From Candidatus Nomurabacteria bacterium (GTDB lineage: Bacteria > Patescibacteriota > Minisyncoccia > Phycocordibacterales > UBA9973): a stretch of 64,000 bases of DNA. Of the stretch, positions 28,367-53,150 are shown in pieces. A model generated the notes under the pieces. That model saw only the letters and a program-made list of their open reading frames with translations. It made no database searches and had not been told where the DNA came from. Positions within the stretch are counted from its first letter, which is position 1; every line of letters starts with the position of its first letter. The translations under genes and the position numbers were made by a program. The stretch lies in NCBI GenBank assembly GCA_016699085.1, contig CP064958.1, positions 67,785 through 131,784 of the forward strand, read 5' to 3'.

Positions 28367-31298
28367 TTGATGTTAAGAGAGCTAGTATAGACATACCGCT
28401 CTTATCATACACCTCTTCTGGCAAATTTGGCTTTGTTACAACTATATGAGTTAGATTCGTTGTTGCATTATACGTCGCAACAACTTTAAAAGCATCTTTA
28501 ACCTTTATCGTTTGAGTCAGCTTTTTATATGATCCATCATTGGCCAGATTCCATTTATACTCAATCGTTGTATGTGGAAATTTAATTTTTGGATTAGCAT
28601 TATAGCTAATATCTTTAACTCTTAGATTAATCGGAGAAATACCAGGGACAAAAGGTGCAGCATCGCTAACTAGATTGAGCTTTGTTGTATTACCTGATAC
28701 ATCAGCAATCGTATAGGTAAGATTTTCCTTCGTTGTTGAAGTTGGACTTTCTTCATCTACTCCAATAATACTTAGATCTTTATTGTCTTGATCAAATGCG
28801 ATAAATACTTCGGGAGCTGTAATATCAGGAACATTTACTTGCTCTAATATAGTTTCACCCGTACCATTTATCGTGTCATATGTCGCAATAAACGAATCAA
28901 CTTGCCCATCTGTAATACTACCTGTAGATTGACTTTGCGAATCATTACCAGATCCATCAAAAGAAGTAGCCGCAATAGTGTACGTACCTGCACCTGTGCC
29001 CGTAACCTTGAGAGTATAGTCCCCTACACTAGGTGTTGGAATGTACGCTATTTTCCAAGTATGTTCAGCTCCATTACCATCAGGATCATCATACATTTCA
29101 TTAACATAACTGGCATTGGGAATATCAGCAAAAGTCTCATCAGTAGATGGATCATAGCCAAGTTTGTTACCTGCTGGATCTGTTATAACAATATCGGCAG
29201 GAGATGCAACATTAAATGCAAGGTACACAGTTGCAACTCCAGTCGGATTTGGTTTGAAAAGTCTTAGTCCTGCAAATTGCTTACTGTATGCGCGGACATG
29301 CTCAGTAGTATTTGTTTCTGATTCATTGAGGGTTTTAGTGTTGTAAAATGCCGGATCTTTTACTTCATAATTATTGGATGAGAGCTTATTTGCAAGAACT
29401 ATAAAATGTGTGTGGGTTTTAGTATTTTTTATATACTGCACTTTTGCAATAACTGGCCGGTTGAGATCTAAATAACTATTGGCAAGACTGTAATTAGTTT
29501 CCGAGAAATCTCCAGAGTTTGCATCATAGGCTAATTGATTATCGGTGTATTGTGCTACTTTATACCAACTCATAGCACCACCAGGATAATAGCCCATATT
29601 GTTTTTTAACCAAGAATTTAATGTTAGTGGCGTTACATCATTTGCTTGTATATTTGTGATTCCATAATACCTAGCTACCATTACAGCAGAGACCATAGCG
29701 CAACCACAACTTGCAATTGTTATCCCACAACCAGTATTCCCAATACCATACGCATAATCTTGATTAAACCATGAAGAAGTTTCAGCAATACCGGGATAAG
29801 GTGATTGATTTTGTGTATACAGTGGTACATTTTGAATAACAAAATCAATATTATTTGTTATCCCAAATTCACTCCATGGGGATTTGTTATTTTGTGCATC
29901 CACTGCCCTGGCACGCCAGTGATACGAATCATCAGTATTCCCCTCACTCTTTATGCTAACTACTTCACCATCATTTACAGAGCCTGATATTAGTAAATTA
30001 GAACCGTCAAAAACTACATCATTAGGTTTAATTTCAACCTCCATAGAAGCCGTTCCTCCATCTGGCACATGCAACGTTCCTTTGAGGATAATTGTATCAC
30101 CCGTATTAAGCCCCCCTTCTGCAAGTGAGTAGCTACCATCAGATTTGAATTGAGTAAGTAAATCAATACTGGGGCCACTAGTGCCAGCAAATGGATCAGT
30201 AGATAACCATGGAGAAAATGAAGAAAGATATTGAATGTCCGCAGTATCTCCTTGTCCTGTAGGATTCACCAATTCATCATAAGGGCCACTTGGATCACCC
30301 CACCAATTATTAGTTAAGTCAGGTATAGTACCACCTATGATAAAAGCAACAGTATTCCCAGAAAAAGAACTTTGGTGGACACTAAATACCCCATGCTCTG
30401 TTCCCCGCATACCAATTGCATTATTAAGTATTTGGGAATTCGTCATTGTTAATACTTCATCATCGGGGCCCAATAGTTTGAAACCACCCTCTGAAGATAC
30501 ATTGTCAACTGCAATTTCAGAAAAATTTTTTATCACAACTGAATCAAGTGTAATATTTGTTCCTAATCCATAATATCGAATACCAGCTTTCCCAGTATCA
30601 AAAATACAATTTGTGCAACTAAGAGACGAATCGTAGGCAACAATAGCCGCATAGGTAGTGGTGTTTATTTCAGTAAAATCAGTTAAATAAACTTGAGAAG
30701 TGAAGCCACTAAAAATACCCAGCACACTATCAGCTATATCAATGTTCGTTGCTGTTATTGTTGCATGATCTGCATATATATCTCTATGATTGTGATTAAA
30801 GGAAATATGATCAATAGAGGCCGTAACACTATGGTAATAAAGCGCATTTACTGCATATGAAAAATCAACAAAAGCAAGTGCTGATGTTGCATTAAAAATT
30901 TTGATTCCTCCCCAGTCATCATATCCAGGAGATGTCAAACTACCATCATTATTAGAATCCCCGCTAACACTATCATCCAGATACGAAGTAAATATAATTG
31001 GATTTGAAGCCTCCCCGACCGCATGCAATGTGCCTTTGACAGAAAGTAGAGGTGGATCTTCATCATCGGGATCATCGGGGCCATAACTTTTAATTACAAC
31101 TCCGGGTTGGATAGTCAATATGACACCTAATGCAACATCTATCGGAGAAGTTATAATATAAGGGCTACCTCCGACATCCCATGTTGTATTGCTTGTAATA
31201 TTATTCGTAATAATAGTACTTGCATGAAGTTTGTTGTTTGGAGCAAGTACAATGATGGTAATAAGTACCATCACAATAAAAATATATTGCTTGTACAT
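28341..31298 (-). CDS. Large cell-surface protein (about 985 aa) with a signal peptide, a beta-helix-like region, a C39-like cysteine peptidase domain and C-terminal Ig-like domains. The true start is the Met at 31298.
   Basis: 'GNTGCGITIASCGCAMVSAVMVARYYG' (Cys box), then 'THTHFIVL' (His), then 'KDPA' (Asp), matching the peptidase C39/C39-like signature. The ORF-track N-terminal extension is a translated palindrome. Confidence 0.65.
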   Translation of the reverse strand: MYKQYIFIVMVLITIIVLAPNNKLHASTIITNNITSNTTWDVGGSPYIITSPIDVALGVILTIQPGVVIKSYGPDDPDDEDPPLLSVKGTLHAVGEASNPIIFTSYLDDSVSGDSNNDGSLTSPGYDDWGGIKIFNATSALAFVDFSYAVNALYYHSVTASIDHISFNHNHRDIYADHATITATNIDIADSVLGIFSGFTSQVYLTDFTEINTTTYAAIVAYDSSLSCTNCIFDTGKAGIRYYGLGTNITLDSVVIKNFSEIAVDNVSSEGGFKLLGPDDEVLTMTNSQILNNAIGMRGTEHGVFSVHQSSFSGNTVAFIIGGTIPDLTNNWWGDPSGPYDELVNPTGQGDTADIQYLSSFSPWLSTDPFAGTSGPSIDLLTQFKSDGSYSLAEGGLNTGDTIILKGTLHVPDGGTASMEVEIKPNDVVFDGSNLLISGSVNDGEVVSIKSEGNTDDSYHWRARAVDAQNNKSPWSEFGITNNIDFVIQNVPLYTQNQSPYPGIAETSSWFNQDYAYGIGNTGCGITIASCGCAMVSAVMVARYYGITNIQANDVTPLTLNSWLKNNMGYYPGGAMSWYKVAQYTDNQLAYDANSGDFSETNYSLANSYLDLNRPVIAKVQYIKNTKTHTHFIVLANKLSSNNYEVKDPAFYNTKTLNESETNTTEHVRAYSKQFAGLRLFKPNPTGVATVYLAFNVASPADIVITDPAGNKLGYDPSTDETFADIPNASYVNEMYDDPDGNGAEHTWKIAYIPTPSVGDYTLKVTGTGAGTYTIAATSFDGSGNDSQSQSTGSITDGQVDSFIATYDTINGTGETILEQVNVPDITAPEVFIAFDQDNKDLSIIGVDEESPTSTTKENLTYTIADVSGNTTKLNLVSDAAPFVPGISPINLRVKDISYNANPKIKFPHTTIEYKWNLANDGSYKKLTQTIKVKDAFKVVATYNATTNLTHIVVTKPNLPEEVYDKSGMSILALLTSNGILSYDF

Positions 31299-31396
31299 AT
31301 AGTATAAGTATATGCTTTGACTTTTTACTCGCAATATTGTAAAAATTTTTCTGTGGAAAACTTTTATATAAAAAACTTTTATGATATAAGGTTTTT

Positions 31397-31450
31397 TCAA
31401 ACTAAAATAATATATATACACGGCCGTGTATATATATTATTTTAGTTTGA
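31397..31450. promoter_or_regulatory. 54-bp perfect palindrome (putative operator) upstream of the surface-protein gene. It overlaps the stop codon of the PaaX-like gene.
   Basis: TCAAACTAAAATAATATATATACACGG|CCGTGTATATATATTATTTTAGTTTGA. Confidence 0.6.
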
Positions 31451-37999: not shown

Positions 38000-39064
38000 A
38001 TGGAATTTTTCAGAGATCAATCATATAACTCAGCCAAGGTATTTTTCCTCTTGGCGCTCATCATAGGTTCGGGTATGTTTATTATGTATGGCGGCGGCAA
38101 TGGTGACAATAGTTTACTAGGTCGTGTATTTAATAAAAAAAACACTACATATAATCCACTTAATAATAATATTCAGACTGGAATCAATATTGTCGTTCCA
38201 GGAAGTAATGTAGCAAGTACTAGTAACTGCACAGCGGCAAATGCTGGTTTCCCCGGATCGGTTCGTTATTGTAATGAAATTTTTAGCCAGTTAGATATTC
38301 CAGAACCTTCAGTATCAGCGGGCACTTCGGGAATAGTCTTTTCGTCTACATATGGTCTTAAGTTTGATGTCTATACTCCACCACTTTCTGACACAGCAAC
38401 AAATCGAGCTGCGGTCATACATTTTCACGGAGGTGGTGGTGATGAGACTAGCGCTGGACCATGTAAACAATATGCAAGCTTTGGGTATGTATGTTTTTCT
38501 GGAGATTATCGAAATGATGATGCTGTAAAAGGATTTAGCTCAGCAGAACAGAAACATGCCACATCTGATGCGCAAGCAGCTCTACGCTATATCCGAATTC
38601 ATGCGAGTGAGTATGGCATTGATCCAAATCGGATAATGTTAAGTGGTATATCTGCAGGAGGTACTGTTGCACTAGAAGCTGCTGTTTCTGGAAATAACCT
38701 TGACAATGTCAACTGGTTCTCATCTAGTGATCTTGAAGTTAACAGAGACAATCAATTTGGTATTGTGTCTTCAAAAAGCTGCGTAGCAACAAGTAATTCT
38801 GGCGCTCCAATGGTTTCTACCAATAGTTTAATTGATGCTGGAGATCCACCCACATCATTATTTCTAGGAGAAAATGATCTCAGTCATGGATGGACATGTA
38901 ATACAGGGCAAGTATTCACTGATGCCATGACACTTATCGGTATTCCAAGTTATTTCCAGTGTTTTCCAGATACTGGCCACTCACTCAACCAAGGCCCAGC
39001 AATAGATGCTGTTGTCATCCCAATGGTATATAAAGAAATGATTGTTGAAAGCTGCACATTATAA
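38000..39064 (+). CDS. Secreted alpha/beta-hydrolase (esterase/lipase-like).
   Basis: N-terminal transmembrane/signal segment, 'HFHGGGG' oxyanion-hole motif, 'GISAGG' (GxSxG), and a C-terminal 'DTGHS'. Confidence 0.6.
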   Translation: MEFFRDQSYNSAKVFFLLALIIGSGMFIMYGGGNGDNSLLGRVFNKKNTTYNPLNNNIQTGINIVVPGSNVASTSNCTAANAGFPGSVRYCNEIFSQLDIPEPSVSAGTSGIVFSSTYGLKFDVYTPPLSDTATNRAAVIHFHGGGGDETSAGPCKQYASFGYVCFSGDYRNDDAVKGFSSAEQKHATSDAQAALRYIRIHASEYGIDPNRIMLSGISAGGTVALEAAVSGNNLDNVNWFSSSDLEVNRDNQFGIVSSKSCVATSNSGAPMVSTNSLIDAGDPPTSLFLGENDLSHGWTCNTGQVFTDAMTLIGIPSYFQCFPDTGHSLNQGPAIDAVVIPMVYKEMIVESCTL

Positions 39065-40860: not shown

Positions 40861-40966
40861 TATAAGTTCCGCCCGCCAAAAAACGAAATCGGATTTTAGA
40901 GCCGAAATGGGGTCACACCTTCGTGCCGACCATATTTTTGGTTCGGAAACCCTTTTCGAAAAATTG

Positions 40967-41053
40967 CGGAGGGTAAGAGATTTGAACTCTTGATGCTCTT
41001 TCGAGCATACCGCCTTTCCAAGGCGGCGCACTAGACCACTATGCGAACCCTCC
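40967..41053 (-). tRNA. tRNA-Ser (anticodon GGA), with a long variable arm and no encoded CCA.
   Basis: Manual cloverleaf: acceptor GGAGGGT/ACCCTCC, D-stem GCA/TGC, anticodon stem CCGCC/GGCGG with loop TTGGAAA, variable arm ATGCTC-gaaa-GAGCAT, T-stem AAGAG/CTCTT with loop TTCAAAT, discriminator G. Confidence 0.85.
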
Positions 41054-41197: not shown

Positions 41198-41230
41198 AAA
41201 AAAAGTCTGCGATAATCTGCAGACTTTTAA
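41198..41230 (-). terminator. Terminator for the 41234..41845 gene.
   Basis: AGTCTGC...GCAGACT followed by a T-run on the minus strand. Confidence 0.5.
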
Positions 41231-41233
41231 CTA

Positions 41234-41845
41234 TTATCCCCAAATGATATTTCCACCACCATCTCTTTCTGGACGAGGGAGTGGCGGCTGGGTATTGAAA
41301 TTCATTCCTTGTTCTTCTACCCACCCAATGTTGAACCATTTTTCGATAATAGGACTAAGAAGTATAAACGGCGTACTTGCAAGCAAATTGATACCAGTAA
41401 ATACAATCTGACCCATGATAATTTCTTGCCAGGTTACCGCATGAGGAGCAAAAAGCATTAAAGTACATGTAACAATATCAAAAATGACTAAGCCACCTAT
41501 CCCGAATGTTAGGTAAAATCGCAACTTACTCACATACGATTTGCGCCTACGAATCTTTTTCCTTGCATACATATACGCTATACCCATACCAATGAGACCA
41601 TACAATACTGAGTACATACAGTTCGTCCCTAAGTCGAGTGCGAGTGTATGATGAATATACGGCGCAATTATATTGAATAAAAATACACTACATGCACCAA
41701 AGAAAAAAACATGCCATTTGCTGAGTTTCCCTGCTGGCATTTGGAATGCCATGATGGGATTACCAGGAATATACGGCAAACTCGTAAGGAGTCTGTACGC
41801 AAGTGTTACAACAGCAAGCGTAAGTAATTTGAGATTATTTTTCAT
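41234..41845 (-). CDS. Polytopic membrane protein (203 aa), possibly an ECF-transporter S component.
   Basis: About 5 transmembrane helices. Confidence 0.4.
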   Translation of the reverse strand: MKNNLKLLTLAVVTLAYRLLTSLPYIPGNPIMAFQMPAGKLSKWHVFFFGACSVFLFNIIAPYIHHTLALDLGTNCMYSVLYGLIGMGIAYMYARKKIRRRKSYVSKLRFYLTFGIGGLVIFDIVTCTLMLFAPHAVTWQEIIMGQIVFTGINLLASTPFILLSPIIEKWFNIGWVEEQGMNFNTQPPLPRPERDGGGNIIWG

Positions 41846-42049: not shown

Positions 42050-43756
42050 TTACAGTAACTTTTTCAGTCTTTTTTCAATATACATATCTATCTCGTCTAT
42101 ATTTTTCTGTAGTGTAGTAAAGATAACTTTTTCTTTCTTGTTTAACACACGGTCAATTTTTATTGCTTCAAGTGATAGTAATTGCTTTGCTAAGTCTTCT
42201 TTTACTGACACCAGTTCATTATGGATTTTAGTGATGGTTTCTTTCAACTCGCGTTCAATCTTTCTTTTTGTGCCAAAATATTTATGCCATCCAATATAGC
42301 AAACAATGAGTAAGCCGACTGAACAAAGAATTATACATAAGAGCCAGAGCATGGTAATGGTTACTTGTGCAACACTTGTCTGATTTACTTTTACAAATAT
42401 TTTTTCTGAGGGCTGGCTTTTAACCTCATCGGAAAGAATATTTGTACCGTAGATACTCAGTATTCCTACCTTTTTTATCTTATCTGTAGTAAAACTGAAA
42501 GTTCCATCCGTAGACGTTACCTCAGTATATTCCTTAATAATTTTGCCATCTAGTTGGACAGTTATGACAACAGGTGTGTCGGGATAATCGCTTTGCCCGG
42601 AAATAATGACTGATTCTCCTTTCACTATTTCTGTAGCATCAATAGATAGTACTGGTGCAGTTATATAAGAACTTTCATATAACAATTCTGACGTTGTGTA
42701 ATTACCCGCCCTGTCGTATGCCGTCACTACTAAACTATGATTTCCTTGATTCAACACTGGAAGTGAGTATTGTTCATCTATCAATGTATCACTCTTCACC
42801 AGTAACGGTTCTGCCGAATCAATTTTTATTGTGTAGTAGTCTATTCCTGAGGTCACATCTTCCGCATTTAATGTGAGTAGGTTCTTATAATCTACAGTAT
42901 GTACGACAGGAACAAATTCTTTTGGCGGTGTTGCATCTATCTTGATTTTATAATGCGCAGTTGGACTACTACCACCTGCACTGCTATATGAAAGATGGAA
43001 ATAATGTATACCGTCCACGATATTAGTAAGAGTCTTTTCTGAGACAGAACTATCATAGACTAGAGTGGGTGTTGCATTTGAGATCTTATTCAAAAGAGTT
43101 TTAAGAGAACTAACCCCATCTGGCACTTTCCAATTAAAGGAGGCAGTATTATTTGCATACCAGATTTCCTGATTTGGATGAGTACTGGAGTAAATCTGAG
43201 GTTTTACTAATGATGAACTTGAAGTATCTTCAGTGGTAGTTGCATCCTCTAGAATTCCTATAGCAACAACACTTCCTGATTTTGAAATTAAAATATTTGT
43301 ACCTAACCCATCATTTTCTCTAACCGCCGCATCAGAGTACACAATTGATGCTGTGCCTACCTTTTTAGCTTTAAATGTAATAGTTGCAATCGTACCACTA
43401 CCACCTTTATAACCAGGATTTACAATACCTCCATTATAGGAGATTACGCCTGTGGTGTTCGAAAAAGTTGGTTCTTCTACCCATAAAGTAAAAATAGAAT
43501 TACTCTTGCTTATTGATACTACCTGAAGTAAATCTACGGGAAATAAAATTTCCCCGTCAGAATTGTTTATATATTTTCCTGACGTGTTCGCAATAACGCT
43601 AATAGAAAACGTATTTCCAACACTCGTGGTGATAGTACTAGGTAAAAGCGAGAGTGTTGCGGAAAAAACAATAGTGGGTAGTAGGAAAAAAATTACTACA
43701 CTGCACGCGACAAAACTATATGTCTCAAGTATCGATTTATAGAGTAGTTTGTGCAT
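42050..43756 (-). CDS. Type-I membrane protein with an N-terminal cohesin-like domain, Ig-like domains, a C-terminal transmembrane helix and a cytoplasmic coiled-coil tail.
   Basis: Signal peptide; 'ILFPVDLLQVVSISKSNSIFTLWVEE...GTIATITFKAKKVGTASIV' cohesin-like beta-sandwich pattern; C-terminal transmembrane 'ITMLWLLCIILCSVGLLIV'. Confidence 0.5.
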   Translation of the reverse strand: MHKLLYKSILETYSFVACSVVIFFLLPTIVFSATLSLLPSTITTSVGNTFSISVIANTSGKYINNSDGEILFPVDLLQVVSISKSNSIFTLWVEEPTFSNTTGVISYNGGIVNPGYKGGSGTIATITFKAKKVGTASIVYSDAAVRENDGLGTNILISKSGSVVAIGILEDATTTEDTSSSSLVKPQIYSSTHPNQEIWYANNTASFNWKVPDGVSSLKTLLNKISNATPTLVYDSSVSEKTLTNIVDGIHYFHLSYSSAGGSSPTAHYKIKIDATPPKEFVPVVHTVDYKNLLTLNAEDVTSGIDYYTIKIDSAEPLLVKSDTLIDEQYSLPVLNQGNHSLVVTAYDRAGNYTTSELLYESSYITAPVLSIDATEIVKGESVIISGQSDYPDTPVVITVQLDGKIIKEYTEVTSTDGTFSFTTDKIKKVGILSIYGTNILSDEVKSQPSEKIFVKVNQTSVAQVTITMLWLLCIILCSVGLLIVCYIGWHKYFGTKRKIERELKETITKIHNELVSVKEDLAKQLLSLEAIKIDRVLNKKEKVIFTTLQKNIDEIDMYIEKRLKKLL

Positions 43757-44654
43757 TGTATTTCCATCGTAGTATCAGTTTAATGAACGCATATAAACAA
43801 ATAATAATGAGTACTGACACAACTATTGCTACCCAGTTAATTGGCTCTTTTGATACTACTGTTGCAGTTTGAAAGTTTCCTGCTTTGTCATACGCCAACA
43901 CTGTCACATCCACATCCTGGGTTTGGTTTATAAGAACGTAATGACTGCCGCTTCTAACGCCAGGATTTGTTCCTTCTCTTACCTCGTAATAACTAATTCC
44001 TGATTGTCCATCAGTGGTCTCAAAAGAGAGAAATTTCTTACCATCATATAGATAACTATCTTGCAATACTTCTACAGTGAAAGCCTCTGGGGGTATATTG
44101 TCATTAGAAATAATTTCCTGCCATTTATCTATATTACTTTCATTTGCAACTCTAACTGAAATTATTGATATATCTTTCACTACCGTGCTTGGTGTACCTA
44201 ATCCATCATTGAGATACGCAGTGACACTACTTGGCTTTATAGTAAAATCGCCGGGTTGGTTTATTTTCACAATTACTTTAAAAAGTAATAACTTATCCCC
44301 AGATACCCCACCTGGAAGTCCACCGACAAAATTAATATTTCCCTCTTCGAGCGATGGTTTACGTGGCCACAGGGTGAAAACCGAATTAACAACACTTAAA
44401 TCCTTTATTTCAAAATTGCCATTGTGGGTATCACTTAGGGTAAGTGAACCATCCACTGAATTAATCTGCTCCCCTTCTGTATCCAGATAAATATCAATAA
44501 TGCTAGTATCCCCAGCCACCAAGGCGCTATTTGATGAGGCACGAATAGCTACTGCATAACTTGTGACAGGTAGAGCAAAGGAGGTAATGAACAAAGTTAC
44601 CGTAATAAAATATAAAAGTGCTCCTTTATTTCTTTTTAAAAATTGTTTTTTCAT
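43737..44654 (-). CDS. Type-I membrane protein with an N-terminal cohesin-like domain and a C-terminal transmembrane anchor.
   Basis: Signal peptide; 'IIDIYLDTEGEQINSVDGSLTL...FTLWPRK...LLLFKVIVKINQPGDFTI' cohesin-like pattern; C-terminal transmembrane helix. Overlaps neighbours by 4 and 20 nt. Confidence 0.5.
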   Translation of the reverse strand: MKKQFLKRNKGALLYFITVTLFITSFALPVTSYAVAIRASSNSALVAGDTSIIDIYLDTEGEQINSVDGSLTLSDTHNGNFEIKDLSVVNSVFTLWPRKPSLEEGNINFVGGLPGGVSGDKLLLFKVIVKINQPGDFTIKPSSVTAYLNDGLGTPSTVVKDISIISVRVANESNIDKWQEIISNDNIPPEAFTVEVLQDSYLYDGKKFLSFETTDGQSGISYYEVREGTNPGVRSGSHYVLINQTQDVDVTVLAYDKAGNFQTATVVSKEPINWVAIVVSVLIIICLYAFIKLILRWKYNAQTTL

Positions 44655-46570
44655 TTAGGTTTTGTTCCCCACTGATACAGCATAATAGAAAAATCAATTG
44701 AATCAACTTTTTGATCAAGATTGACATCTACGCAAGGATTAGAAAAGGTGGGTGATTGCTTCCAAAAGAACAGTAATATGGAAAAGTCTACTGAATCTAC
44801 AAGACCACTAGAGTTGAAATCGGCCCCATTACACTCACTTGTATCTGCGTCGTCACTTGAGCCGGAAGCTCCCCCTCCTCCTCCACTACCTCCACCTCCT
44901 CCTCCAGCCTGCTCCTCACTCACCTCAGTCACAGTGAACACTCTAGATGCACCAGAACTATCTGTCCCGAAGTAAACAACCAATTTAAAATAATAGGTTC
45001 CAATTGAAGCCACACTTGCTGTGAGATTTGTGTTCCAATCTTCGCTAGGATTTATAAATTTTGCTGCCGATGCATAGTATGCGTCATCATTCCCACCGCA
45101 TTCATTATCTAAATCAGTAACCACACACCATTCATAGTCATATTCATATCCACTAAGACCTTCGTTAGTGATAGTTACATTTCCCAACACCGAACTTATA
45201 CTAGACGCTGTCACAGAATTTATCAATACCTGTGCGGGTGAACCTGAAACTTCCCAATAATCATTTGTCTGGATCGTCTTTCCACTTTCAACTTCTGTTG
45301 AGGCAACTGTTTCCCATAAGCCCTGAGAGGCGCCTGAAGCGACAGTATATGTATATTCATACACACCTGTACTCACCAGTGTCATGGGTACAGCGGAGAC
45401 AACCGCATTACGGTTTGCATCATATACAGTTACTGTGGGCACTGAAGCAGGCGCTGTTGGTGTAGCGCTACTATTTAAAATATATACTTTAGTTCTATAT
45501 ACATATCCAGCTTGAATTCTCTCTAGATTACTCATCCTTACTGACCACCCTGTAATTGATGAAATAGTGCCATCCAAATTGGTCGCAATTTGGGCCCCGA
45601 TTGATCCGACAGCAACAAGTGAATCGGAAAGTACGTTCCACACATCCGCAGCAGTAATATCATTACCATAGTTTGTAAGTGTCCTCGTTGCATTTGCCCA
45701 GACAGCAGTAGCTATGGAGGAAGTGGAGTAATCTGTGAGCGTGCGGGTAGCAGATGCCCACACATCAGCAGCGGTAAGATTACTAGTACCCCGACTAGAT
45801 ACTTCCACATCGAGATTATCCACAATCTTTTTCCCGATAGTACCCGATGTTGTTAATCCTGATGTAGCGACATCCCAAATTCCTTGTTTTGAAGCAGTGG
45901 AGAGTTCTACCGTACCACTATTAATCGATCGAGTACCGTATCCCCAAACATCCGCAGCAGTAATATTATTTAGCGCATTGATTAAGGTTCGATTTGTTTC
46001 AATTTCTGTAACTATTGTATTTTTTGCAGTATCAATATAACTCTCCGTTGCAAGCGATCCTCCCCCGGTCAATGTTTTATCTGTTAAACGCCTCACTGAA
46101 GCGTATGTATCATTCCACACATCAGCAGCTAGTGAACCGAATGCAGTCAGTGTACGATCACCATTGGCCCACACACTTGTCGCAATAGAACTATCGGTAA
46201 GAGTAGCTGTTTTAACAATAAATGTCTTGTCAACCTTAACAAGATCACCAGCAAGTGCCGTACCACAAGACATAAATGAAGCATATTTCCCGTTTGTAAC
46301 GGGGGCAACATAATCGTAATGATGCCATCCGTTTGCATCGGCGGTCATTACTACCTCATTCACCAGAGTTGTTCCATTCGGGCTATATATAGAGATGGTA
46401 CAGTCACTCGTATTTGCCGTGAAATCATCGTTGTATACAAATTCTCCTACAGTGATCGTATCACCAGGTGCGTATACAGTCTCTGATGCAAGCGTTACAG
46501 GTGCATTGCTAAAAAAAGTTACTAGCAGTACAACAAATAAATATTTTCCAAAGTAAGAACGAAAAATCAT
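44651..46570 (-). CDS. Secreted protein (639 aa) with 'AADVW...TRTLT' repeats, a Gly-rich linker and a C-terminal tandem dockerin-like module.
   Basis: Sec signal peptide; 'GGGGGGSGGGGGASGSS' linker; C-terminus 'DFNSSGLVDSVDFSILLFFW' plus 'DVNLDQKVDSIDFSIMLYQW', a duplicated Ca-binding dockerin-type segment. Confidence 0.6.
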   Translation of the reverse strand: MIFRSYFGKYLFVVLLVTFFSNAPVTLASETVYAPGDTITVGEFVYNDDFTANTSDCTISIYSPNGTTLVNEVVMTADANGWHHYDYVAPVTNGKYASFMSCGTALAGDLVKVDKTFIVKTATLTDSSIATSVWANGDRTLTAFGSLAADVWNDTYASVRRLTDKTLTGGGSLATESYIDTAKNTIVTEIETNRTLINALNNITAADVWGYGTRSINSGTVELSTASKQGIWDVATSGLTTSGTIGKKIVDNLDVEVSSRGTSNLTAADVWASATRTLTDYSTSSIATAVWANATRTLTNYGNDITAADVWNVLSDSLVAVGSIGAQIATNLDGTISSITGWSVRMSNLERIQAGYVYRTKVYILNSSATPTAPASVPTVTVYDANRNAVVSAVPMTLVSTGVYEYTYTVASGASQGLWETVASTEVESGKTIQTNDYWEVSGSPAQVLINSVTASSISSVLGNVTITNEGLSGYEYDYEWCVVTDLDNECGGNDDAYYASAAKFINPSEDWNTNLTASVASIGTYYFKLVVYFGTDSSGASRVFTVTEVSEEQAGGGGGGSGGGGGASGSSDDADTSECNGADFNSSGLVDSVDFSILLFFWKQSPTFSNPCVDVNLDQKVDSIDFSIMLYQWGTKPK

Positions 46571-46659: not shown

Positions 46660-46836
46660 TTACCTTTTGTTACCCAATGATTTTAGAGAATTACCACTTG
46701 ATTGCTTAAAAGCACCAATGACACTTCGTATTGCATCAAGAAAACTCTTTGTCATTTTTGGAATTCTTTGTGCACTAAAAAGAAAAAATATTACCAACAC
46801 TATTATTACTACCTCCTTTCCACCGAGCCCAAACAC
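46660..46836 (-). CDS. tatA: Sec-independent translocase TatA/E-like (59 aa, GTG start). Not in the ORF track.
   Basis: Reverse translation 'FGLGGKEVVIIVLVIFFLFSAQRIPKMTKSFLDAIRSVIGAFK': transmembrane helix, then 'FG', then an amphipathic helix. Confidence 0.6.
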   Translation of the reverse strand: MFGLGGKEVVIIVLVIFFLFSAQRIPKMTKSFLDAIRSVIGAFKQSSGNSLKSLGNKR

Positions 46837-46845
46837 ATCGAAATA

Positions 46846-47004
46846 TTATTTCTTCTTTATATCATCGTCAGACTTAAATGCTCCTGTTATGTGCTTAATC
46901 GCATCAACAAGACTTTTTGCTAATTCGGGTATTTTTTTAGCCCCAAAAAGAACTACAAGAATAACTGCAATGATAATTATTTCTTTTGTACCTAGTCCAA
47001 ACAT
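46846..47004 (-). CDS. tatA: Sec-independent translocase TatA/E (53 aa). Not in the ORF track.
   Basis: Reverse translation 'MFGLGTKEIIIIAVILVVLFGAKKIPELAKSLVDAIKHITGAFKSDDDIKKK'. Confidence 0.7.
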   Translation of the reverse strand: MFGLGTKEIIIIAVILVVLFGAKKIPELAKSLVDAIKHITGAFKSDDDIKKK

Positions 47005-47015
47005 ATATGTAAATG

Positions 47016-47750
47016 TTATTTTATAATTAAACTATGACGACTTTTAAAACTTGAATTAACCAGTATGGTCAACTCATAAATCAAGACCATGGGCAATGCC
47101 ATTAAGACTAATGATAGACCATCAGTGGGTGGAAGTAAAGAAACGAGAATAAATATAAAAACAATCGCATGGCGTCGCTTGGAGCGCAGGTAGCGCACGG
47201 TAGTAAAACCAGTTCTAATGAGAAAGGTAATGACTATGGGGAATTCAAACACAAGTCCGAGGAGTGATGCAGTAAGTACAATCTCTGAGACAAATCGTGT
47301 AATATCCCAGTAATTTACAATACCAAGTGTTGTGTTGAGGTGGGCAATCGTTTCAATCGCAAAATAAAGTATTGCGAATCCATAGCCAAATCCTAAAAAA
47401 AAGAGCGGGATAGATACAGGTATTAATGCAATAAATAATTTTTTTTCAAGTTTTAATAAACCTGGACTCAGAAATGCATATAAATGATAGACGAAAAATG
47501 GTGTTACGACGACACTGGCAAGAAAGAACCCTGCACTCATAGCAAGATTTATAAGTTGAAAGGGTGCCGTAGTAACTATCAGCACATCTTTTATTGCAAG
47601 ATGCTTAATAAATAACTTTATGAGCGGACTTGTAGTAAAAAATCCAATGATAAATACAAGTGCAAAAATTCTTAAGAGAGATAGGAGTCGCCACTGTAAT
47701 TCATTAAAATAATTACTATATTGATGGAGATATTGATGCAAGCCATCCAT
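47016..47750 (-). CDS. tatC: Sec-independent translocase TatC.
   Basis: 6 transmembrane helices; 'LSPGLLKLEKKL', 'FEFPIV', 'LRSKRRHAIVFIFILVSLLPPTDGLSLVLMALPMVLIYEL' TatC signatures. Confidence 0.9.
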   Translation of the reverse strand: MDGLHQYLHQYSNYFNELQWRLLSLLRIFALVFIIGFFTTSPLIKLFIKHLAIKDVLIVTTAPFQLINLAMSAGFFLASVVVTPFFVYHLYAFLSPGLLKLEKKLFIALIPVSIPLFFLGFGYGFAILYFAIETIAHLNTTLGIVNYWDITRFVSEIVLTASLLGLVFEFPIVITFLIRTGFTTVRYLRSKRRHAIVFIFILVSLLPPTDGLSLVLMALPMVLIYELTILVNSSFKSRHSLIIK

Positions 47751-47754
47751 AATA

Positions 47755-48621
47755 TTATGGTAATTTCTTCTTAGGCTTCGGCTTTACCATATTAATACTA
47801 GGATCTTGTACAGGTGCGATGGGTATTACTTCTATTGAACTTGTGGGTAGTTCTGGTTCAGGCACTGGGGTCGATTCGTCTGGTTCTGGCTCAACAATTG
47901 GCACGACTGGTGCTTCTTTTGGTACTTCAGAGTTTGTCACAGGCGAGTCAGATGGCTCATCATGAGAAATAGGTGGGCTTACAATATTGACACGATGATC
48001 ATTAAGCCAATCTGCAACTGCATCGACACCATCACTCCATGATGGATAGGTTCTCGTATCCACTCCATTATTACCGACATTACCAGGGTTATTGGTTTTA
48101 GCCCCAATACCAAGAGTGCCAAAAACAGAATCAAGTTCTATGAGTGCCATCATCAATCGGACATCAATATTGTATTTTACACCTGAATCAAAAATCATTT
48201 GCCCAGTAAGCGGACTTTCAACAGCAGTAAATCTGACATACTGCTCAATTTCTTCTGCTGAACTCATGGTGCCCATTTTTTCTAGGATACTCTGAATCTT
48301 TTTTTCATGATCAGGATCTACTGCATACGAAGTAATATCATATTCAAGCAAACATTTTGTAGCATCTGTTATCGTCGTAGGATTAAACGCAGCTTCAATA
48401 CCCTTCTTTACTACATCAGCTTCTGAAAAGGGAGTATTCACTGCCGTCTCTTCAATACTAGAGAGTAATTTTAATTTGGAAACTGTATTTTGCACATCAA
48501 GAATTTCAGCATCTACTGCCACAATCCTCTCCAAATCACCTGACTGGAAAGCCTGATCTTTCGCAAGGGTCAAGCCATTTAATCTATTCGTCAATAATTG
48601 TATTAAATAATCTATATTCAT
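47755..48621 (-). CDS. Coiled-coil protein with a possible glucosaminidase-like (peptidoglycan hydrolase) segment and a Pro-rich C-terminus.
   Basis: 'MALIELDSVFGTLGIGAKTNNPGNVGN' resembles FlgJ/GH73-type motifs. C-terminus 'PVVPIVEPEPDESTPVPEPELP'. Confidence 0.35.
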   Translation of the reverse strand: MNIDYLIQLLTNRLNGLTLAKDQAFQSGDLERIVAVDAEILDVQNTVSKLKLLSSIEETAVNTPFSEADVVKKGIEAAFNPTTITDATKCLLEYDITSYAVDPDHEKKIQSILEKMGTMSSAEEIEQYVRFTAVESPLTGQMIFDSGVKYNIDVRLMMALIELDSVFGTLGIGAKTNNPGNVGNNGVDTRTYPSWSDGVDAVADWLNDHRVNIVSPPISHDEPSDSPVTNSEVPKEAPVVPIVEPEPDESTPVPEPELPTSSIEVIPIAPVQDPSINMVKPKPKKKLP

Positions 48622-48627
48622 AAATAA

Positions 48628-51477
48628 TTAAAAGAAAAGAAGCATTCGCCACATTTCAGCTCCAGTATGACGCATTACGTACAAATATTTCAATCCGTCT
48701 GTGGTCTCTATTATTTCCATTCTATTACCAATAATTGCTGTGGAATGACCATATGGAATTGTTCCTAAAGATTTTACTTCATTTGTAGAAAAATTATATG
48801 CATAGATTCTACCTGTAGCATTTTTAGTAAAATAAATAGTATTTTCTCCATCATATGCATACATAGACCCCGTCGTAAGAGTTTCTGCTTGTGGTGAAAA
48901 GAAATACCCATACGTCCACCGGGAAGTGGTTATGTCATAAATATCAGCTGTATTAGAGGCACCACCTCTCGGTAAAAAAATATATTTACCTTTCGTTGCA
49001 CTATCACTATTTCCCCAAACCCACAATAATTGCATTCCGGCACCTCTTGCTGGAATACCCAAGATCGCATACGTAGAAGTTGTGTCTGTCAGAGTAAGTG
49101 CTGCTGTGGTAAGTGCGGTTGCAGTATTTGAAGTAATGGTTGCCTCCTGACCAAGCGCTGTTCCTCCTGTAATACGCAACCTCTTACCGGCCCACATATT
49201 TGTAGTCCAGTTTTTTGTGGTTGTCTCTGTGACTGGTGTTGTTGTACCACCAGCTGTTATTAAACCCCAACTATCTGCTATTTCATAATGGGTAGTACTA
49301 TCAGGAGTAAAAGATTGAGTAGCATAAGTAAGAGTGGTACTAGTATTTGAAACAACAGAAATAATACCACTTGCAAAACCTGTGCCTGCTTCTATTCGAA
49401 GCTTATATCCTGCCCAGCAGTTGGTCACCCAACTCTTTGATGAATCAACGAGTGTCGTGGTCGACCCCCCTGACGCATGTCCCCAGTTTTGCATATTTGC
49501 AGGTTTAAACTGATTGTCAGTGCCAAAAACTTTTGAATCATAAATTGCGTATCTTGAAGTTCCATTCACACCCGCTACAATAGTCGCCACCGTTAATGTA
49601 GTAGCAGTGTTCGCAGTAATCCATCGTGTCTGACTAGTAGGTGCAGTACCAGCAACTGATAGATGTACCAACTTTCCAACATGTTCATTTGTTGTCCATG
49701 CTTTTGATGCATCTACAATTAACGTCGTTGACTGAGAACTATTTGCAGCCATACTTGCAGTTGCAGTAGTAGCTACATCAAAAGTAGTTGTACTTCCAGC
49801 ACCTAATATAGTATGGGCTGTATTATAAGCTGCTTCAGAGCACCCAGCGAAAGTCACTGAGTCTCCTGTTTTAAACCAGTTCGCTGTGGGTGTTGTAATC
49901 AGACAAGTTACCCCTACTGAAGTTATTTCAATAGTACAACCAGATCCTGTGCCACCCGTAGTCGCCTTACCTGTACCAGTAGTAAATCCAGTAACCGTGC
50001 CAGAAGCAACAAGCTCTATCGCAGTAACAACACCAGTAGAACCTGAAAAAGTAGTAGCTGTAACAATAACACGGGCACCTGTGCCTCCTACTGAGCACGT
50101 CAAAATATCTCCGACTAAATATCCTGTCCCACCTGCTGTAGGTGTTGAGTTTACTGCTGTCACACCAGCTGCAATTCTTGCACCACTTGTCACACCAAGT
50201 GCATCCCAACCATTCATCTTTACCGATATATTTGTTGTAACTCCGTAATCAAAATTTTGACCTTGCATCCAGAAATCATTTTCAGGTGAATATGCGTACA
50301 TTGCACCAGCCGCACCTCCTGCTAGAAACATTTTGTCATAATCGCCCCACACTTCATAAAGAGAAGTTGCGTCTGGATTTGTATCCCATGGTTTAACTAC
50401 AGTAAACACCGTCGCTGTATTACAGACAATCCTTCGGTGTTGCCCCATTCCTGTGCCCCCAGTGATACGAATACGATAATTAACATATCTATCTACTGTC
50501 ATTGTTTGTGTGGAATCAGTCAAAGTTCTCGCAGCGCCAGCCGTAGCAGTAGAAGAAACAAATGCTGTACCTGTTTTTGCCAATCGTTCAACGGAACAAT
50601 CAGTACCTAGTGCTGCTTGTATTAAACCTTGATTACAAGTCTTTGTTTGCCAAGAATCATGTAAAATATCGTAATATTGTAGAGTAAAAAATGGTGCCGA
50701 TGCCGCAGACGACAAAACATAAATCCCTCCAGTGGTTGTTGTAAAATACGAAGTATAATCTGGTGTGACATCCCAAGTAGATACGGTGTATGTGTGGGAT
50801 AAAATTTGGAAATGTGCCTGAGAACCAGCAGTGGTAACAGGAAGCGCATAAGGTGCTACCGCTACGAAGGGTTGGTTGTTCCAAGATTCGTGTGGTTGTA
50901 AGTTTACATCATATATATAGAGAGTGGTTGCATCATTATATAAAATCTTCTTATATTGTGTCGCATCTGTACCGAACGTAATACCTACAAGATAGCCTGA
51001 CCATTGATTAAATTTCCACTTTTTAGTGGAATCAGCCAAAGTTGAAGTAGTAGTACCCGTAATCACACCTGCATCGTGAATGGTCTCACTGGTATACGTG
51101 AGTACTTTTTCTTGACCAGCACCTGTGCCGGTTAATATTTTTAATGTTTTACCATTGAGAGTGGGCCCACGAAGCCCCGCTATTTGAATAGTTGTTGCTG
51201 TCGCACTGAGTACCCGACCATGATAGCCACGGAAACCAGTATAGCGTGCAGACAAAGTGGTTACAGGAGTAGTGTTTGGCGTTGAGAGTTGTTGCCAAGT
51301 ATCAGCATAGGTATCATATCTATACAGTGTGGCAGTAGAAATATAATACAGGAATCGAGCAGATCCATCATCAGATGTAGCAAGCCCTGAAAGTGCAGCA
51401 GTGTTGGTGGGGGCAAAACGACACCACTCCCAGACTGGTAAATCAACCTGTGCTTTTAAATTATTGGTGACTGCCAT
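48628..51477 (-). CDS. Giant Thr/Gly-rich protein (949 aa) with at least six internal 45-aa repeats and no obvious signal peptide.
   Basis: Repeats of the form 'T.xDSxKxWxTNxWAGxxLRIxxGTGxGQxxxIxSNTATxLT', seen 6 times. Confidence 0.5.
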   Translation of the reverse strand: MAVTNNLKAQVDLPVWEWCRFAPTNTAALSGLATSDDGSARFLYYISTATLYRYDTYADTWQQLSTPNTTPVTTLSARYTGFRGYHGRVLSATATTIQIAGLRGPTLNGKTLKILTGTGAGQEKVLTYTSETIHDAGVITGTTTSTLADSTKKWKFNQWSGYLVGITFGTDATQYKKILYNDATTLYIYDVNLQPHESWNNQPFVAVAPYALPVTTAGSQAHFQILSHTYTVSTWDVTPDYTSYFTTTTGGIYVLSSAASAPFFTLQYYDILHDSWQTKTCNQGLIQAALGTDCSVERLAKTGTAFVSSTATAGAARTLTDSTQTMTVDRYVNYRIRITGGTGMGQHRRIVCNTATVFTVVKPWDTNPDATSLYEVWGDYDKMFLAGGAAGAMYAYSPENDFWMQGQNFDYGVTTNISVKMNGWDALGVTSGARIAAGVTAVNSTPTAGGTGYLVGDILTCSVGGTGARVIVTATTFSGSTGVVTAIELVASGTVTGFTTGTGKATTGGTGSGCTIEITSVGVTCLITTPTANWFKTGDSVTFAGCSEAAYNTAHTILGAGSTTTFDVATTATASMAANSSQSTTLIVDASKAWTTNEHVGKLVHLSVAGTAPTSQTRWITANTATTLTVATIVAGVNGTSRYAIYDSKVFGTDNQFKPANMQNWGHASGGSTTTLVDSSKSWVTNCWAGYKLRIEAGTGFASGIISVVSNTSTTLTYATQSFTPDSTTHYEIADSWGLITAGGTTTPVTETTTKNWTTNMWAGKRLRITGGTALGQEATITSNTATALTTAALTLTDTTSTYAILGIPARGAGMQLLWVWGNSDSATKGKYIFLPRGGASNTADIYDITTSRWTYGYFFSPQAETLTTGSMYAYDGENTIYFTKNATGRIYAYNFSTNEVKSLGTIPYGHSTAIIGNRMEIIETTDGLKYLYVMRHTGAEMWRMLLFF

Positions 51478-51481
51478 ATAA

Positions 51482-52195
51482 CTATGAAAAAACTAAATTA
51501 CTTCTAATTCCATTTGCTGAGGCATTTCTTGCTGTATCAATATACAGATAACGTCCATCAACGCCTCCTAATGCCACGAGATTGGTTGCTGATGTAAGTG
51601 TCGAGACAGTAGTTACCGTTGTTACGGTTCCCACAGTAGTGACAGTACCAAGTGTAAGTGAAGCCGAAATTGCATCAAGGGTGATTTTTTGTCTTTGTGC
51701 TGTATCAACGACTGCCAACGAGTCTACTTGTTTTACCAATCTACGCAGAAGCATTGCACTATCATCAGTTGCGGGATTTACTTGGGTGCTTGTAGTGTCT
51801 TTTACCGTAACACTGCTCGTTCCTCCAGTGGAAGCAGTAAGTAGGTTATTACTCCCATCAAAGGTAAGGTTTGCTGTTTTTGCTTGAATGAGAGCGAGGG
51901 TAGTCTCAGTGGCAGGATCGATCCGTACATTAGAGATATTTTTTACTCCAACAACACTTGAAGATGGAGTACTTCCCATGATCAACGCCTCGGCTTTTTT
52001 AGGCAACAATTGTGACGCTACCAAACCGACACCGGCAATGCCGGCAACTTTTAGAAAATTTCTTTTACCGTTATCAGTCTCTAATGAATGTTTATTATTT
52101 CCATTTCGCGCACTACCTGAGCCTGGTTTTACAATACTACTTAATGTATTTCTAGAAATTAATTTGAAGGAATATTTGATTGGAATGATATACAT
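51482..52195 (-). CDS. Exported Thr-rich repeat protein (237 aa) with a twin-arginine-like (KR) signal peptide.
   Basis: 'NGKRNFLKVAGIAGVGLVASQLLPKKAEA' is a Tat-type n-region plus h-region plus AxA cleavage site. C-terminus 'TVGTVTTVTTVSTLTS'. Confidence 0.5.
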   Translation of the reverse strand: MYIIPIKYSFKLISRNTLSSIVKPGSGSARNGNNKHSLETDNGKRNFLKVAGIAGVGLVASQLLPKKAEALIMGSTPSSSVVGVKNISNVRIDPATETTLALIQAKTANLTFDGSNNLLTASTGGTSSVTVKDTTSTQVNPATDDSAMLLRRLVKQVDSLAVVDTAQRQKITLDAISASLTLGTVTTVGTVTTVTTVSTLTSATNLVALGGVDGRYLYIDTARNASANGIRSNLVFS

Positions 52196-52268: not shown

Positions 52269-53150
52269 CTATTTATTGAGCAACGCTTTCACGCGATCCT
52301 CCATCGGCGGATGTGTCATCCAGAGTTTTGCAAAACTGCTGGTCTTACCTTTTGGATCTGCAACGTAGAGATGAGCTATAGCGTTGGATTGACGTGCCAT
52401 GGGTGTACTGTACTGACTGATCTTGGTCAGTGCATTTGCCAAACCTTCAGGATAGCGTGTCAAAAGTGCACCGGATGCATCTGCTAAATATTCACGTTTC
52501 CTTGATATCGCAAGCTGTATGAGCGTAGCAAAAATCGGTGCAAGGATTGCGAGCACAATACCAATAATCATAAAAAAGTTTCCCCCACCTTCCCTATCTC
52601 TACCACGACCGCCAAATAGTTGTGCCCGCAAAAACATATCCGCAACGATAGAAATAAATCCCGCTAGTACAACAGCAACCGTCGCGACCAAAATATCACG
52701 ATTGCCAACATGTGAGAGCTCATGCGCAATCACCCCTTCTAACTCACTTCGATCTAGTATTGCCAAGATGCCTGTCGTTACCGCTATTGCTGCATGCTCT
52801 TTATTGCGACCAGTAGCAAATGCATTGGGCGCAGGATCGTTGATGACATAGAGCTTGGGTTTCGGCAGGCCGGCAGTAATAGAGAGATTCTCAACAATAC
52901 TATGAAGCTCTCGGTATACGCTTGGATCAGCTGGTTTAGCACCTGCAAGTTTAATCGCAATCTTATCTGAGTACCAATAGCCAATAATATTCATGACAAT
53001 ACTAAAGAAAAAGAAAGCGTAGAGGATCGTAGGATTCTGGTAGACTTGTGCAAACACAAAACCAATACCGACCACGAGCACAAGGAAAACACTCATGAGG
53101 AGCCAGGTCTTCGTGACATTTTTGGATTGTTGGGTATAGAGCGTTGCCAT
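52269..53150 (-). CDS. htpX: Zinc metalloprotease HtpX (peptidase M48).
   Basis: N-terminal transmembrane helices and 'HELSHVGNRD' (HExxH). Confidence 0.85.
   Translation of the reverse strand: MATLYTQQSKNVTKTWLLMSVFLVLVVGIGFVFAQVYQNPTILYAFFFFSIVMNIIGYWYSDKIAIKLAGAKPADPSVYRELHSIVENLSITAGLPKPKLYVINDPAPNAFATGRNKEHAAIAVTTGILAILDRSELEGVIAHELSHVGNRDILVATVAVVLAGFISIVADMFLRAQLFGGRGRDREGGGNFFMIIGIVLAILAPIFATLIQLAISRKREYLADASGALLTRYPEGLANALTKISQYSTPMARQSNAIAHLYVADPKGKTSSFAKLWMTHPPMEDRVKALLNK

Follow-up and report, generated by a model that had tools for sequence, protein, structure and literature searches.

What purpose would be served by a secreted protein that ends in a dockerin and two membrane-anchored proteins that begin with cohesin-like domains, all three encoded back to back in the chromosome of a Candidatus Nomurabacteria bacterium? 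The question is raised by a trio of genes, here called A, B and C, in a stretch of 64,000 nucleotides of contig CP064958.1 (assembly GCA_016699085.1, positions 67,785 to 131,784 of the forward strand), which is referred to below as the window and from whose first letter all coordinates are counted. A first-pass annotation, made from the letters and their open reading frames (ORFs), had described the trio as a minimal cohesin-dockerin set. The evidence assembled here makes it likely that A, B and C encode a non-cellulosomal cohesin-dockerin surface-tethering module, in which a variable fibre or adhesin is mounted on a membrane anchor. Identical proteins are recorded at NCBI as the hypothetical proteins IPF86_00565 (A), IPF86_00560 (B) and IPF86_00555 (C) of a Candidatus Nomurabacteria metagenome-assembled genome. 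The three genes are the following (aa, amino acids; Ig, immunoglobulin; TM, transmembrane).

44651..46570, minus strand: gene A, an ORF for a cargo protein of 639 aa, secreted and ending in a dockerin.
43737..44654, minus strand: gene B, 305 aa, with a signal-like N-terminus, a predicted cohesin, an Ig-like domain and a C-terminal TM helix.
42050..43756, minus strand: gene C, a 568-aa paralog of B, with a signal-like N-terminus, a putative cohesin, an insert, two Ig-like domains, a TM helix and a charged helical tail, presumably cytoplasmic.

The stop codon of A and the start codon of B share an ATGA within the junction AAATGA (4-nt overlap), and B and C overlap by 20 nt. Both overlaps had been stated by the first-pass annotation, and the coupling is conserved in 80 other species.

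The dockerin tail of A

44663..44833, minus strand: dockerin module of A (aa 580-636), with two Ca-binding loops at 44783..44821 and 44690..44728 and a conserved Cys pair, C580 and C613.
44867..44908, minus strand: Gly-rich flexible linker GGGGGGSGGGGGAS of A (aa 555-568) ahead of the dockerin, read from the sequence.

The C-terminal tail of A is a dockerin. Its two segments, DFNSSGLVDSVDF and DVNLDQKVDSIDF, lie 31 aa apart and are preceded by the poly-Gly linker that had been reported (GGGGGGSGGGGG); a Gly-rich or Pro/Thr-rich linker stands ahead of the dockerin in most orthologs of A. When the six reading frames of the window are scanned with a regular expression that describes the dockerin Ca loop, two sites only are found, both within the last 60 residues of A, and the loops are therefore not a chance motif. 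Asp or Asn occupies 9 of the 10 Ca-ligand sites (positions 1, 3, 5, 9 and 12 of each loop, reading D-N-S-D-D in loop 1 and D-N-D-D-D in loop 2), a helix of the form 'DFSI(L/M)L..W' follows each loop, and the ligand positions of both repeats are near-invariant among 101 ortholog tails. A profile of the ortholog tails retrieves from the PDB the CelS dockerin 1daq (E=1.9e-11) and more than 20 other type I dockerins with the Ca-ligand columns aligned; the Ca-coordinating residues are present and correspond to the ligands of 1daq.

The predicted structure agrees. AlphaFold2 models of the A tail and of B were built as single chains, and that of the tail (a 78-aa construct) has a pLDDT above 87 over the module and helices at 32-41 and 63-71, one after each loop. 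When it was submitted to Foldseek, the top 21 PDB matches were all dockerins, the best being 2y3n_B (TM-score 0.79, root-mean-square deviation 1.4 Å, 55 columns). Ligand conservation, tail profile and fold thus bear out the dockerin reading. Within the wider family, most of the 120 listed orthologs of A carry a precomputed match to the Pfam model Dockerin_1 (PF00404), and five other cargos of the same operon type score 27-35 bits on the Pfam dockerin model (cut-off 22.9).

These tails are a distinct and very conserved dockerin subfamily. Two cysteines flank the loops of A, as C-x3-D of loop 1 and C-x-D of loop 2; among the 101 ortholog tails, 67 have both, 25 neither and 9 one only. The pair C580/C613 suggests a candidate disulfide clasp, a feature that classical dockerins are not known to have. 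Type I dockerins are known for a dual-binding mode, with which the near-identity of the two repeats of A would fit, and the dockerin of A is presumably Ca-dependent.

The cohesin domains of B and C and their membrane anchors

44145..44558, minus strand: predicted cohesin-fold beta-sandwich of B (aa ~33-170), from AlphaFold2, Foldseek and PF00963 matches of orthologs.
43241..43660, minus strand: putative cohesin domain of C (aa ~33-172), from homology to the B cohesin, PF00963 matches of orthologs and NCBI names.

Models point to a cohesin fold in the N-terminal domain of B. The AlphaFold2 model of B, built from 49 homologs, has a pLDDT of 92.4; after an N-terminal helix come two beta domains, one of 9-10 strands spanning aa 35-168 and another spanning aa 194-266, and the chain closes with a helix at aa 274-304. 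In a Foldseek search with this model, cohesins rank first (2w1n, 2xdh, 2vo8, 2jh2, 5m2s and 6kgd, with TM-scores of 0.63-0.75 normalised to the target). Among these, 2w1n is a double module from C. perfringens GH84C that joins a cohesin to an FN3 domain (E=4.8e-10), 2xdh is a non-cellulosomal A. fulgidus cohesin (TM-score 0.75, root-mean-square deviation 3.2 Å, 141 columns), and 5m2s and 6kgd are cohesins crystallised in complex with dockerins.

By sequence comparison C is a clear paralog of B. The N-terminal ~140-aa domains of the two proteins share 28% identity in BLASTP (E=6e-9), and hhalign, comparing the two family profiles, reports E=1.5e-43 for an alignment that takes in the cohesin and one Ig-like domain; the N-terminal domain of C is accordingly assigned as a cohesin by homology to that of B. 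PF00963, the Pfam cohesin family, matches 7/36 C orthologs (best E=1.7e-8) and 4/49 B orthologs (best 8e-5), and two C orthologs, P0251 and P0259, are named 'cohesin domain-containing protein' by NCBI. The ~140-aa beta-sandwich with cohesin-like positions that had been described at the N-terminus of both anchors is thus recovered for B by predicted fold and for C by homology to B, and structure prediction, which the first-pass annotation had proposed as a check, yields a dockerin for the A tail and a cohesin for the N-terminal domain of B in the predicted models. Conservation in the cohesin domains peaks at beta5, beta6, the 8-9 loop 'NDGLGT' and N65 of beta3, a distribution that would be compatible with the canonical 8-3-6-5 dockerin-binding face. 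On the scale of the window, 64 kb of a genome of ~808 kb, the description of the trio as minimal is borne out, since one dockerin and two putative cohesins make up its content in this respect.

Behind the cohesins follow stalks, membrane helices and, in C, a long tail.

43851..44102, minus strand: Ig-like domain of B (aa ~185-268; OmpL47/Big_13-type), with motifs D.QSGI.YYEV and AYDKAGN; NCBIfam NF047446 E=2e-4, below cut-off.
43764..43835, minus strand: C-terminal TM helix of B (aa ~274-297), then the basic tail RWKYNAQTTL.
42392..43219, minus strand: stalk of C (aa ~180-455), three beta domains, from hhalign gaps and Pfam/NCBIfam matches.
42287..42364, minus strand: TM helix of C (aa ~465-490), hydropathy 2.81, conserved in orthologs.
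42053..42286, minus strand: conserved, highly charged, Pro/Gly-free tail of C (aa ~491-568) with heptad character.

The Ig-like domain of B is also found in C (BLASTP, hhalign). The stalk of C begins with an insert that B does not have (aa ~180-275); two Ig domains follow, the one at aa ~276-360 of Big_13/OmpL47 type and the other, at aa ~365-455, Lap/Ca_tandemer-like. The C profile matches the Lap adhesin 6xi3 in the PDB (E=9.7e-9). The TM helix of B reaches a hydropathy of 2.94 at aa 277-295 and is followed by the 10-residue basic tail; the layout of signal-like N-terminus and C-terminal TM helix that had been claimed for B and C is confirmed by hydropathy and recurs in orthologs. The tail of C, ~71-78 aa long depending on the TM end chosen, is 42% charged, contains no Pro or Gly and keeps the consensus GWHKFFG...LNKKEE.IF..IQKNIDDID.FIEKKLKK in orthologs; hydrophobic residues fill 65% of its heptad a/d positions, compared with 37% overall. 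The tail earlier ascribed to the longer anchor is thus seen, but its description as a cytoplasmic coiled coil is plausible only, from a crude heptad count. No S-layer homology (SLH) domain was found by Pfam in the window proteins or the orthologs of B and C, and the B-family consensus has no conserved LPXTG-like motif ahead of the C-terminal helix.

Conservation of the operon across Patescibacteria

GTDB representatives, one genome per species, were scanned with a dockerin-tail query (an alignment of 7 sequences), which gave 240 confirmed places. The locus counts given here refer to the best 80 of these 240, which come from 80 different assemblies, none with two loci; their ORFs were annotated by hidden Markov models. 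Most carry the lineage labels Nomura-, Falkow-, Zambryski-, Yanofsky-, Wolfe- and Doudnabacteria, Paceibacteria and Minisyncoccia, and many other loci bear uncultured 'Saccharibacteria' or 'Gammaproteobacteria' labels, which we take to be auto-assigned.

A B-type gene directly follows the dockerin gene in 80/80 loci, with a median gap of 3 nt, a gap of 12 nt or less in 72/80 and frequent ATGA overlaps; a C-type gene follows B in 69/80 with a median gap of -13 nt, and since each ORF was started at the first start codon after a stop, some of these overlaps may be overestimated. B-C fusions occur in 2/80 loci, and both cohesins are thus present in 71/80. C is missing in 5 lineages or loci, in which at least 9 kb are available downstream of B and unrelated housekeeping genes follow, and 4 loci leave its presence undecided (in three the contig ends, and one has just 748 nt after B). 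Since B is found throughout and C in fewer loci, A and B form the core that all loci share, and C, a paralog that is usually there, can be dispensed with; among the best 80 of the 240 loci the universal unit is A+B, not the trio. The anchors themselves extend further: an exhaustive profile search for the anchor family gave 2,883 representative clusters (50% identity) at E<=1e-30, mostly of the ~300-aa B type.

Cargo variation and the cellulosome question

46484..46570, minus strand: Sec-type signal-peptide-like segment of A (aa 1-29; ...PVTLA/SE), with no twin-arginine motif.
45611..46198, minus strand: repeats of A (aa ~125-320), '(I/L)(A/T)(A/T)(A/S/D)VW..x..R(T/S)L(T/N)', from sequence and motif counts.
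45275..45490, minus strand: MG2 domain of A (aa 361-432; alpha-2-macroglobulin-type, Ig-like), Pfam PF01835 E=1.7e-11, above cut-off.

The hydropathy of A shows a single hydrophobic segment, N-terminal, at aa 11-29, with a TLA/SE cleavage-like site. Export by the twin-arginine translocation (Tat) route was considered for A and rejected, as A, B and C all lack a twin-arginine motif; a nearby 237-aa protein has one. The body between signal segment and linker gave no enzyme, PDB or PHROG match, and no catalytic domain, glycoside hydrolase or carbohydrate-binding module (CBM) was found in A.

Across orthologs the body varies greatly while the dockerin, B and C stay constant. Complete A proteins range from 304 to 1,575 aa among the best 80 loci, and another 31 dockerin ORFs are cut short at their 5' end by the limit of the locus or contig, 8 of them longer than 3,390 aa. 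The number of 'AADVW...RTLT' repeats rises with protein length, and two body types, either the 'VW...RTLT' repeat with MG2 or arrays of FN3 domains, are swapped between lineages; the cargo in the closed Falkowbacteria chromosome CP066698 has at least 27 FN3 domains. Such giant FN3-array cargos of more than 3,390 aa are found at loci L032, L036, L051, L060, L070, L081, L082 and L084, CP066698 being an example, and at most of these loci B is shortened (~200 aa) and apparently lacks the Ig-like domain.

The enzyme content of the cargo bears directly on whether the trio could be a miniature cellulosome or amylosome, that is, an assembly of enzymes on the cell surface that degrades polysaccharides. 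Cellulosomes are the best-known setting of cohesin-dockerin pairs, and a minimal adjacent pair with cellulase function occurs in Cellulosilyticum lentocellum (PMC13487519). In A and in six other cargos that were examined (FN3/MG2 arrays), however, there is no glycoside hydrolase, CBM or catalytic domain, and each anchor has one cohesin and not the several of a scaffoldin, two-cohesin proteins being limited to the 2/80 B-C fusions. With a cargo that is free of enzymes and swapped between lineages, the trio is therefore not a cellulosome; we have ruled out that reading and regard it as scarcely credible.

Homologs of the A body also exist without the dockerin. Three of them end in another C-terminus ('...ILARLD...IKLET') and adjoin Peptidase_S74 proteins, and their loci contain no match to B, C or the dockerin within 12.7-17.6 kb, even at E<=10. 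Dockerin and cohesin genes therefore come and go together. At two loci, L085 and L086, the dockerin-less A-type body stands beside Peptidase_S74 proteins (tail-fibre chaperone-type) of 1,274-1,469 aa, which hints that the A body is a fibre module employed in other settings as well.

Proposed mechanism and its alternatives

According to the proposed scheme, A would be exported by Sec, and its body, which has no catalytic domain, would resemble a rod or fibre made up of repeats and Ig/MG2 domains in series. The C-terminal dockerin, on its flexible Gly linker, would bind two Ca2+ ions and plug non-covalently into the cohesin of B, probably also or alternatively into that of C. B and C, co-translated from the overlapping operon, would be held in the cytoplasmic membrane by their C-terminal TM helices, and tight translational coupling would hold cargo and anchors in step. 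The outcome would be a variable surface fibre or adhesin on a conserved socket, to which C would add a longer stalk and a cytoplasmic coiled-coil tail. The A:B:C stoichiometry is a part of the proposal that we infer, and the displayed A may serve in attachment, for example to a host cell, because the cargo is built of Ig/FN3/MG2 domains and turns over fast between lineages and because cultivated Patescibacteria live as epibionts (PMC10633639).

A number of observations weigh against this proposal. At the level of single domains, A alone scores 18.4 bits (E=0.0025) with PF00404, below the cut-off of 22.9 bits; the full-length single sequence of A has no significant dockerin match in the PDB (best dockerin E=0.06); and ligand position 5 of loop 1 is Ser, likewise in 3/101 orthologs, although Ser still supplies an oxygen ligand. 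The B and C proteins of the window have no PF00963 match at E<=1 in Pfam. The Pfam scan that the first-pass annotation had proposed thus succeeded in part: some orthologs of each family match, but the A dockerin falls below the cut-off and B and C give no cohesin. The best PDB match of the B-family profile is the cohesin 5aoz, at E=0.43 only; a profile of full-length C found no cohesin in the PDB. Given such weak sequence-only evidence for B and C of the window, the cohesin assignment therefore rests mainly on fold and family transitivity. Many conserved cohesin residues are moreover Gly or Pro and may be structural rather than part of an interface.

At the level of the complex, the binding of A's dockerin to B and/or C is deduced from synteny and co-occurrence, and the choice of partner has a single pointer, namely that every locus has B but not every locus has C. 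Mutual information with average product correction between dockerin columns and B/C cohesin columns in 71 paired triplets gave one dockerin column (position 18 of repeat 1) that correlates with a large number of cohesin columns and so reflects clade membership, and the Ig control was gap-ridden. The count of dockerins and cohesins covers the 64-kb window of a ~808-kb genome, and a membrane-anchored ectodomain of ~270 residues may be too short to span a cell wall or S-layer.

Two other accounts draw on these points. In the first, the cohesin-like domains of B and C would merely be structural or adhesive beta-sandwiches and the A tail a Ca-stabilised terminal module, so that the three proteins would be independent envelope components. 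Besides the lack of Pfam cohesin matches, the marginal similarity to solved cohesins and the largely Gly/Pro conservation, it may cite the occurrence of the cohesin fold in non-dockerin contexts, for example TMEM132 (PMC6030884). It has to contend, however, with the same adjacency and co-occurrence statistics, with fold matches that are true dockerin-binding cohesins, including the dockerin complexes 5m2s and 6kgd, and with dockerin repeats that keep a complete complement of Ca ligands and a pair of nearly identical helices, the arrangement used in cohesin recognition; we judge it quite improbable.

The second account accepts the domains as genuine and places their partners elsewhere: the dockerin of A would bind a cohesin from another part of the genome or one on a different cell, such as the host, B and C would capture other dockerins, and the operon would reflect shared regulation only. 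The inferred nature of the A-B/C pairing, the clade-like covariation and the restriction of the search to 64 kb all leave room for it, and in classical cellulosomes enzyme and scaffoldin genes are often not adjacent. An operon kept for regulation would nevertheless have to explain adjacency in 80/80 loci with a 3-nt median gap and frequent ATGA overlaps, dockerin-less homologs without B and C, one locus per assembly among the best 80, and a dockerin that is extremely conserved while its cargo changes, as expected for co-evolution with a fixed partner encoded next door. We consider it improbable and retain the surface-tethering module as the preferred reading.

Genomic setting and neighbouring genes

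The remaining genes of the window are chromosomal housekeeping genes (DnaE, ThrRS, GyrB, an AddA-like helicase, SecD, glutamine synthetase, M48 protease and one tRNA-Ser), and in this otherwise ordinary company the A/B/C trio is therefore part of the core chromosome and not a mobile element. A phage origin was tried and rejected: PHROG gave no match for A, B, C or the upstream genes, and tblastn of A and B against 50,697 phage records gave none. Beside this rejection stands the observation that the dockerin-less relatives of the A body adjoin Peptidase_S74 proteins. Scans of the locus for promoters and terminators gave counts no higher than in shuffled sequence. A gene for a 203-aa multi-pass membrane protein (41234..41845, minus strand) lies directly downstream of C and is not conserved there in loci L001 and L003; past it is a terminator-like hairpin at 41201..41228. 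Further away, 28341..31421 (minus strand) encodes a 1,026-aa protein that matches a Peptidase_C39-like domain (E=1e-5) and nothing else; it too may be a large protein that is secreted or belongs to the envelope.

Upstream of A are genes of the Tat pathway.

47016..47750, minus strand: tatC, Pfam TatC E=4e-37.
46846..47004, minus strand: tatA, a TatA reading frame.
46660..46836, minus strand: second tatA, a TatA reading frame with a GTG start.

The tatC-tatA order upstream of A is likewise annotated in L001 and L003, and TatC occurs in 29/37 informative loci; the tat genes at 46660..47750 are uncertain members of the A/B/C system. The 237-aa protein with the twin-arginine motif (51482..52195, minus strand) lies in the same-strand block as tatC and the two tatA genes and has a Tat-type signal (GKRNFLK, a hydrophobic stretch and AEA). 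Its homolog is found upstream of the dockerin gene, in either orientation, in 30/37 informative loci, with (K/R)R-x-F-L-K kept in 25/30, and it is probably a local Tat substrate. Also upstream of tatC lie a 949-aa protein without signal peptide and with faint Kelch matches (48628..51477, minus strand) and, between its gene and tatC, a glucosaminidase-like protein below the Pfam cut-off (47755..48621, minus strand). This pair recurs in L001, L005, L012, L015, L019 and L072, and the placing of a wall-hydrolase-like gene next to an envelope structure is suggestive.

These neighbours enter a wider reading, in which the locus would encode a Patescibacteria-wide, envelope-spanning plug-and-socket organelle with a hypervariable fibre of 0.3 to more than 3.4 thousand residues, exchanged among lineages, a nearly invariant disulfide-clasped dockerin and a two-subunit B/C socket. 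C would couple the fibre to the cytoplasm by means of its conserved, presumed coiled-coil tail, the linked Tat substrate, tatA/tatC, glucosaminidase-like and ~800-950-aa proteins would aid assembly through the wall, and the whole would serve attachment to host cells. We hold this reading to be unlikely, though not negligible.

The trio is flanked in the window by the M48 protease (52269..53150), an alpha/beta hydrolase (38000..39064) and the tRNA-Ser (40966..41053). In the Saccharibacterium Southlakia epibionticum, the neighbours of the gene SEML1_0315 are an M48 protease and an alpha/beta hydrolase, together with a tRNA gene (PMC10633639, supplement). The gene kinds that both surroundings have in common could be remnant synteny or coincidence.

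Relation to known cohesin-dockerin systems

The anchoring cohesins of cellulosomes, such as SdbA, OlpB and Orf2p of C. thermocellum and ScaE of R. flavefaciens (PDB 2zf9/4iu3), resemble the trio in that a secreted protein with a Ca-binding dockerin at its C-terminus is captured by a cohesin fixed to the envelope, and ScaE cohesin structures are among the Foldseek matches of B. Cellulosomal anchoring proteins are attached by SLH repeats or a sortase LPXTG signal, whereas B and C have a C-terminal TM helix; the captive here is a non-enzymatic, fibre-like protein and not an enzyme-loaded scaffoldin, and the host is a Patescibacterium.

A second likeness is to single cohesins and dockerins outside cellulose degradation, of which Peer et al. 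reportedly published a survey in 2009 (cited in PMC9012536). The best structural matches to B are of this kind, from A. fulgidus (2xdh) and from C. perfringens GH84/GH33 (2w1n, 2vo8, 2jh2), and the NagJ-NagH complex of C. perfringens (2ozn) is among the dockerin fold matches of the A tail; the cohesin+FN3 tandem of 2w1n mirrors the cohesin+Ig layout of B. Those modules, however, belong to soluble or secreted enzymes or toxins or to uncharacterised archaeal proteins, and not to a fixed operon of a dockerin cargo and two TM-anchored cohesin paralogs.

Adjacent cohesin and dockerin genes that form a small complex were described in 2026 as ClcC/ClcD (Clole_2599/2598) of C. lentocellum (PMC13487519). 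That pair has a cellulase function and belongs to a Firmicute, whereas the trio is enzyme-free, has two membrane-anchored cohesin paralogs and is radiation-wide. Anaerobic methanotrophic (ANME) archaea have many non-cellulolytic dockerin/cohesin surface proteins, some of them multi-cohesin and scaffoldin-like (PMC9012536), and SEML1_0315 of Southlakia is an essential, Ig-rich envelope protein with a dockerin domain (PMC10633639). Like A, the ANME proteins and SEML1_0315 are dockerin-bearing, Ig/FN3-rich, non-cellulolytic envelope proteins of partner-attached organisms for which an adhesion role is proposed; SEML1_0315, which is likened to A by its description, differs in that no adjacent cohesin gene is listed for it (PMC10633639).

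No description of an A/B/C operon in Patescibacteria, for which Candidate Phyla Radiation (CPR) is another name, was found in the full-text literature, most subscription journals being outside its coverage. At the level of single domains, some of this is already recognised in public databases through Pfam matches and NCBI names. The binding principle of cohesin and dockerin is well known; what appears to be unreported is a radiation-wide, membrane-helix-anchored, enzyme-free surface-display operon.

Significance

A large part of the diversity of bacteria belongs to the Patescibacteria (CPR), and those in cultivation live fixed to host cells; to our knowledge, the means by which most members of the group attach are largely unknown beyond type IV pili. 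The trio extends the cohesin-dockerin principle to a membrane-helix-anchored, non-catalytic and operon-encoded form, and a pair that is very small, highly conserved and putatively Ca-dependent could serve as an orthogonal protein-assembly tag. The essential SEML1_0315 suggests that dockerin-domain envelope proteins can matter for growth (PMC10633639), and the A/B/C trio provides a concrete candidate for a general surface-display or attachment device in Patescibacteria.

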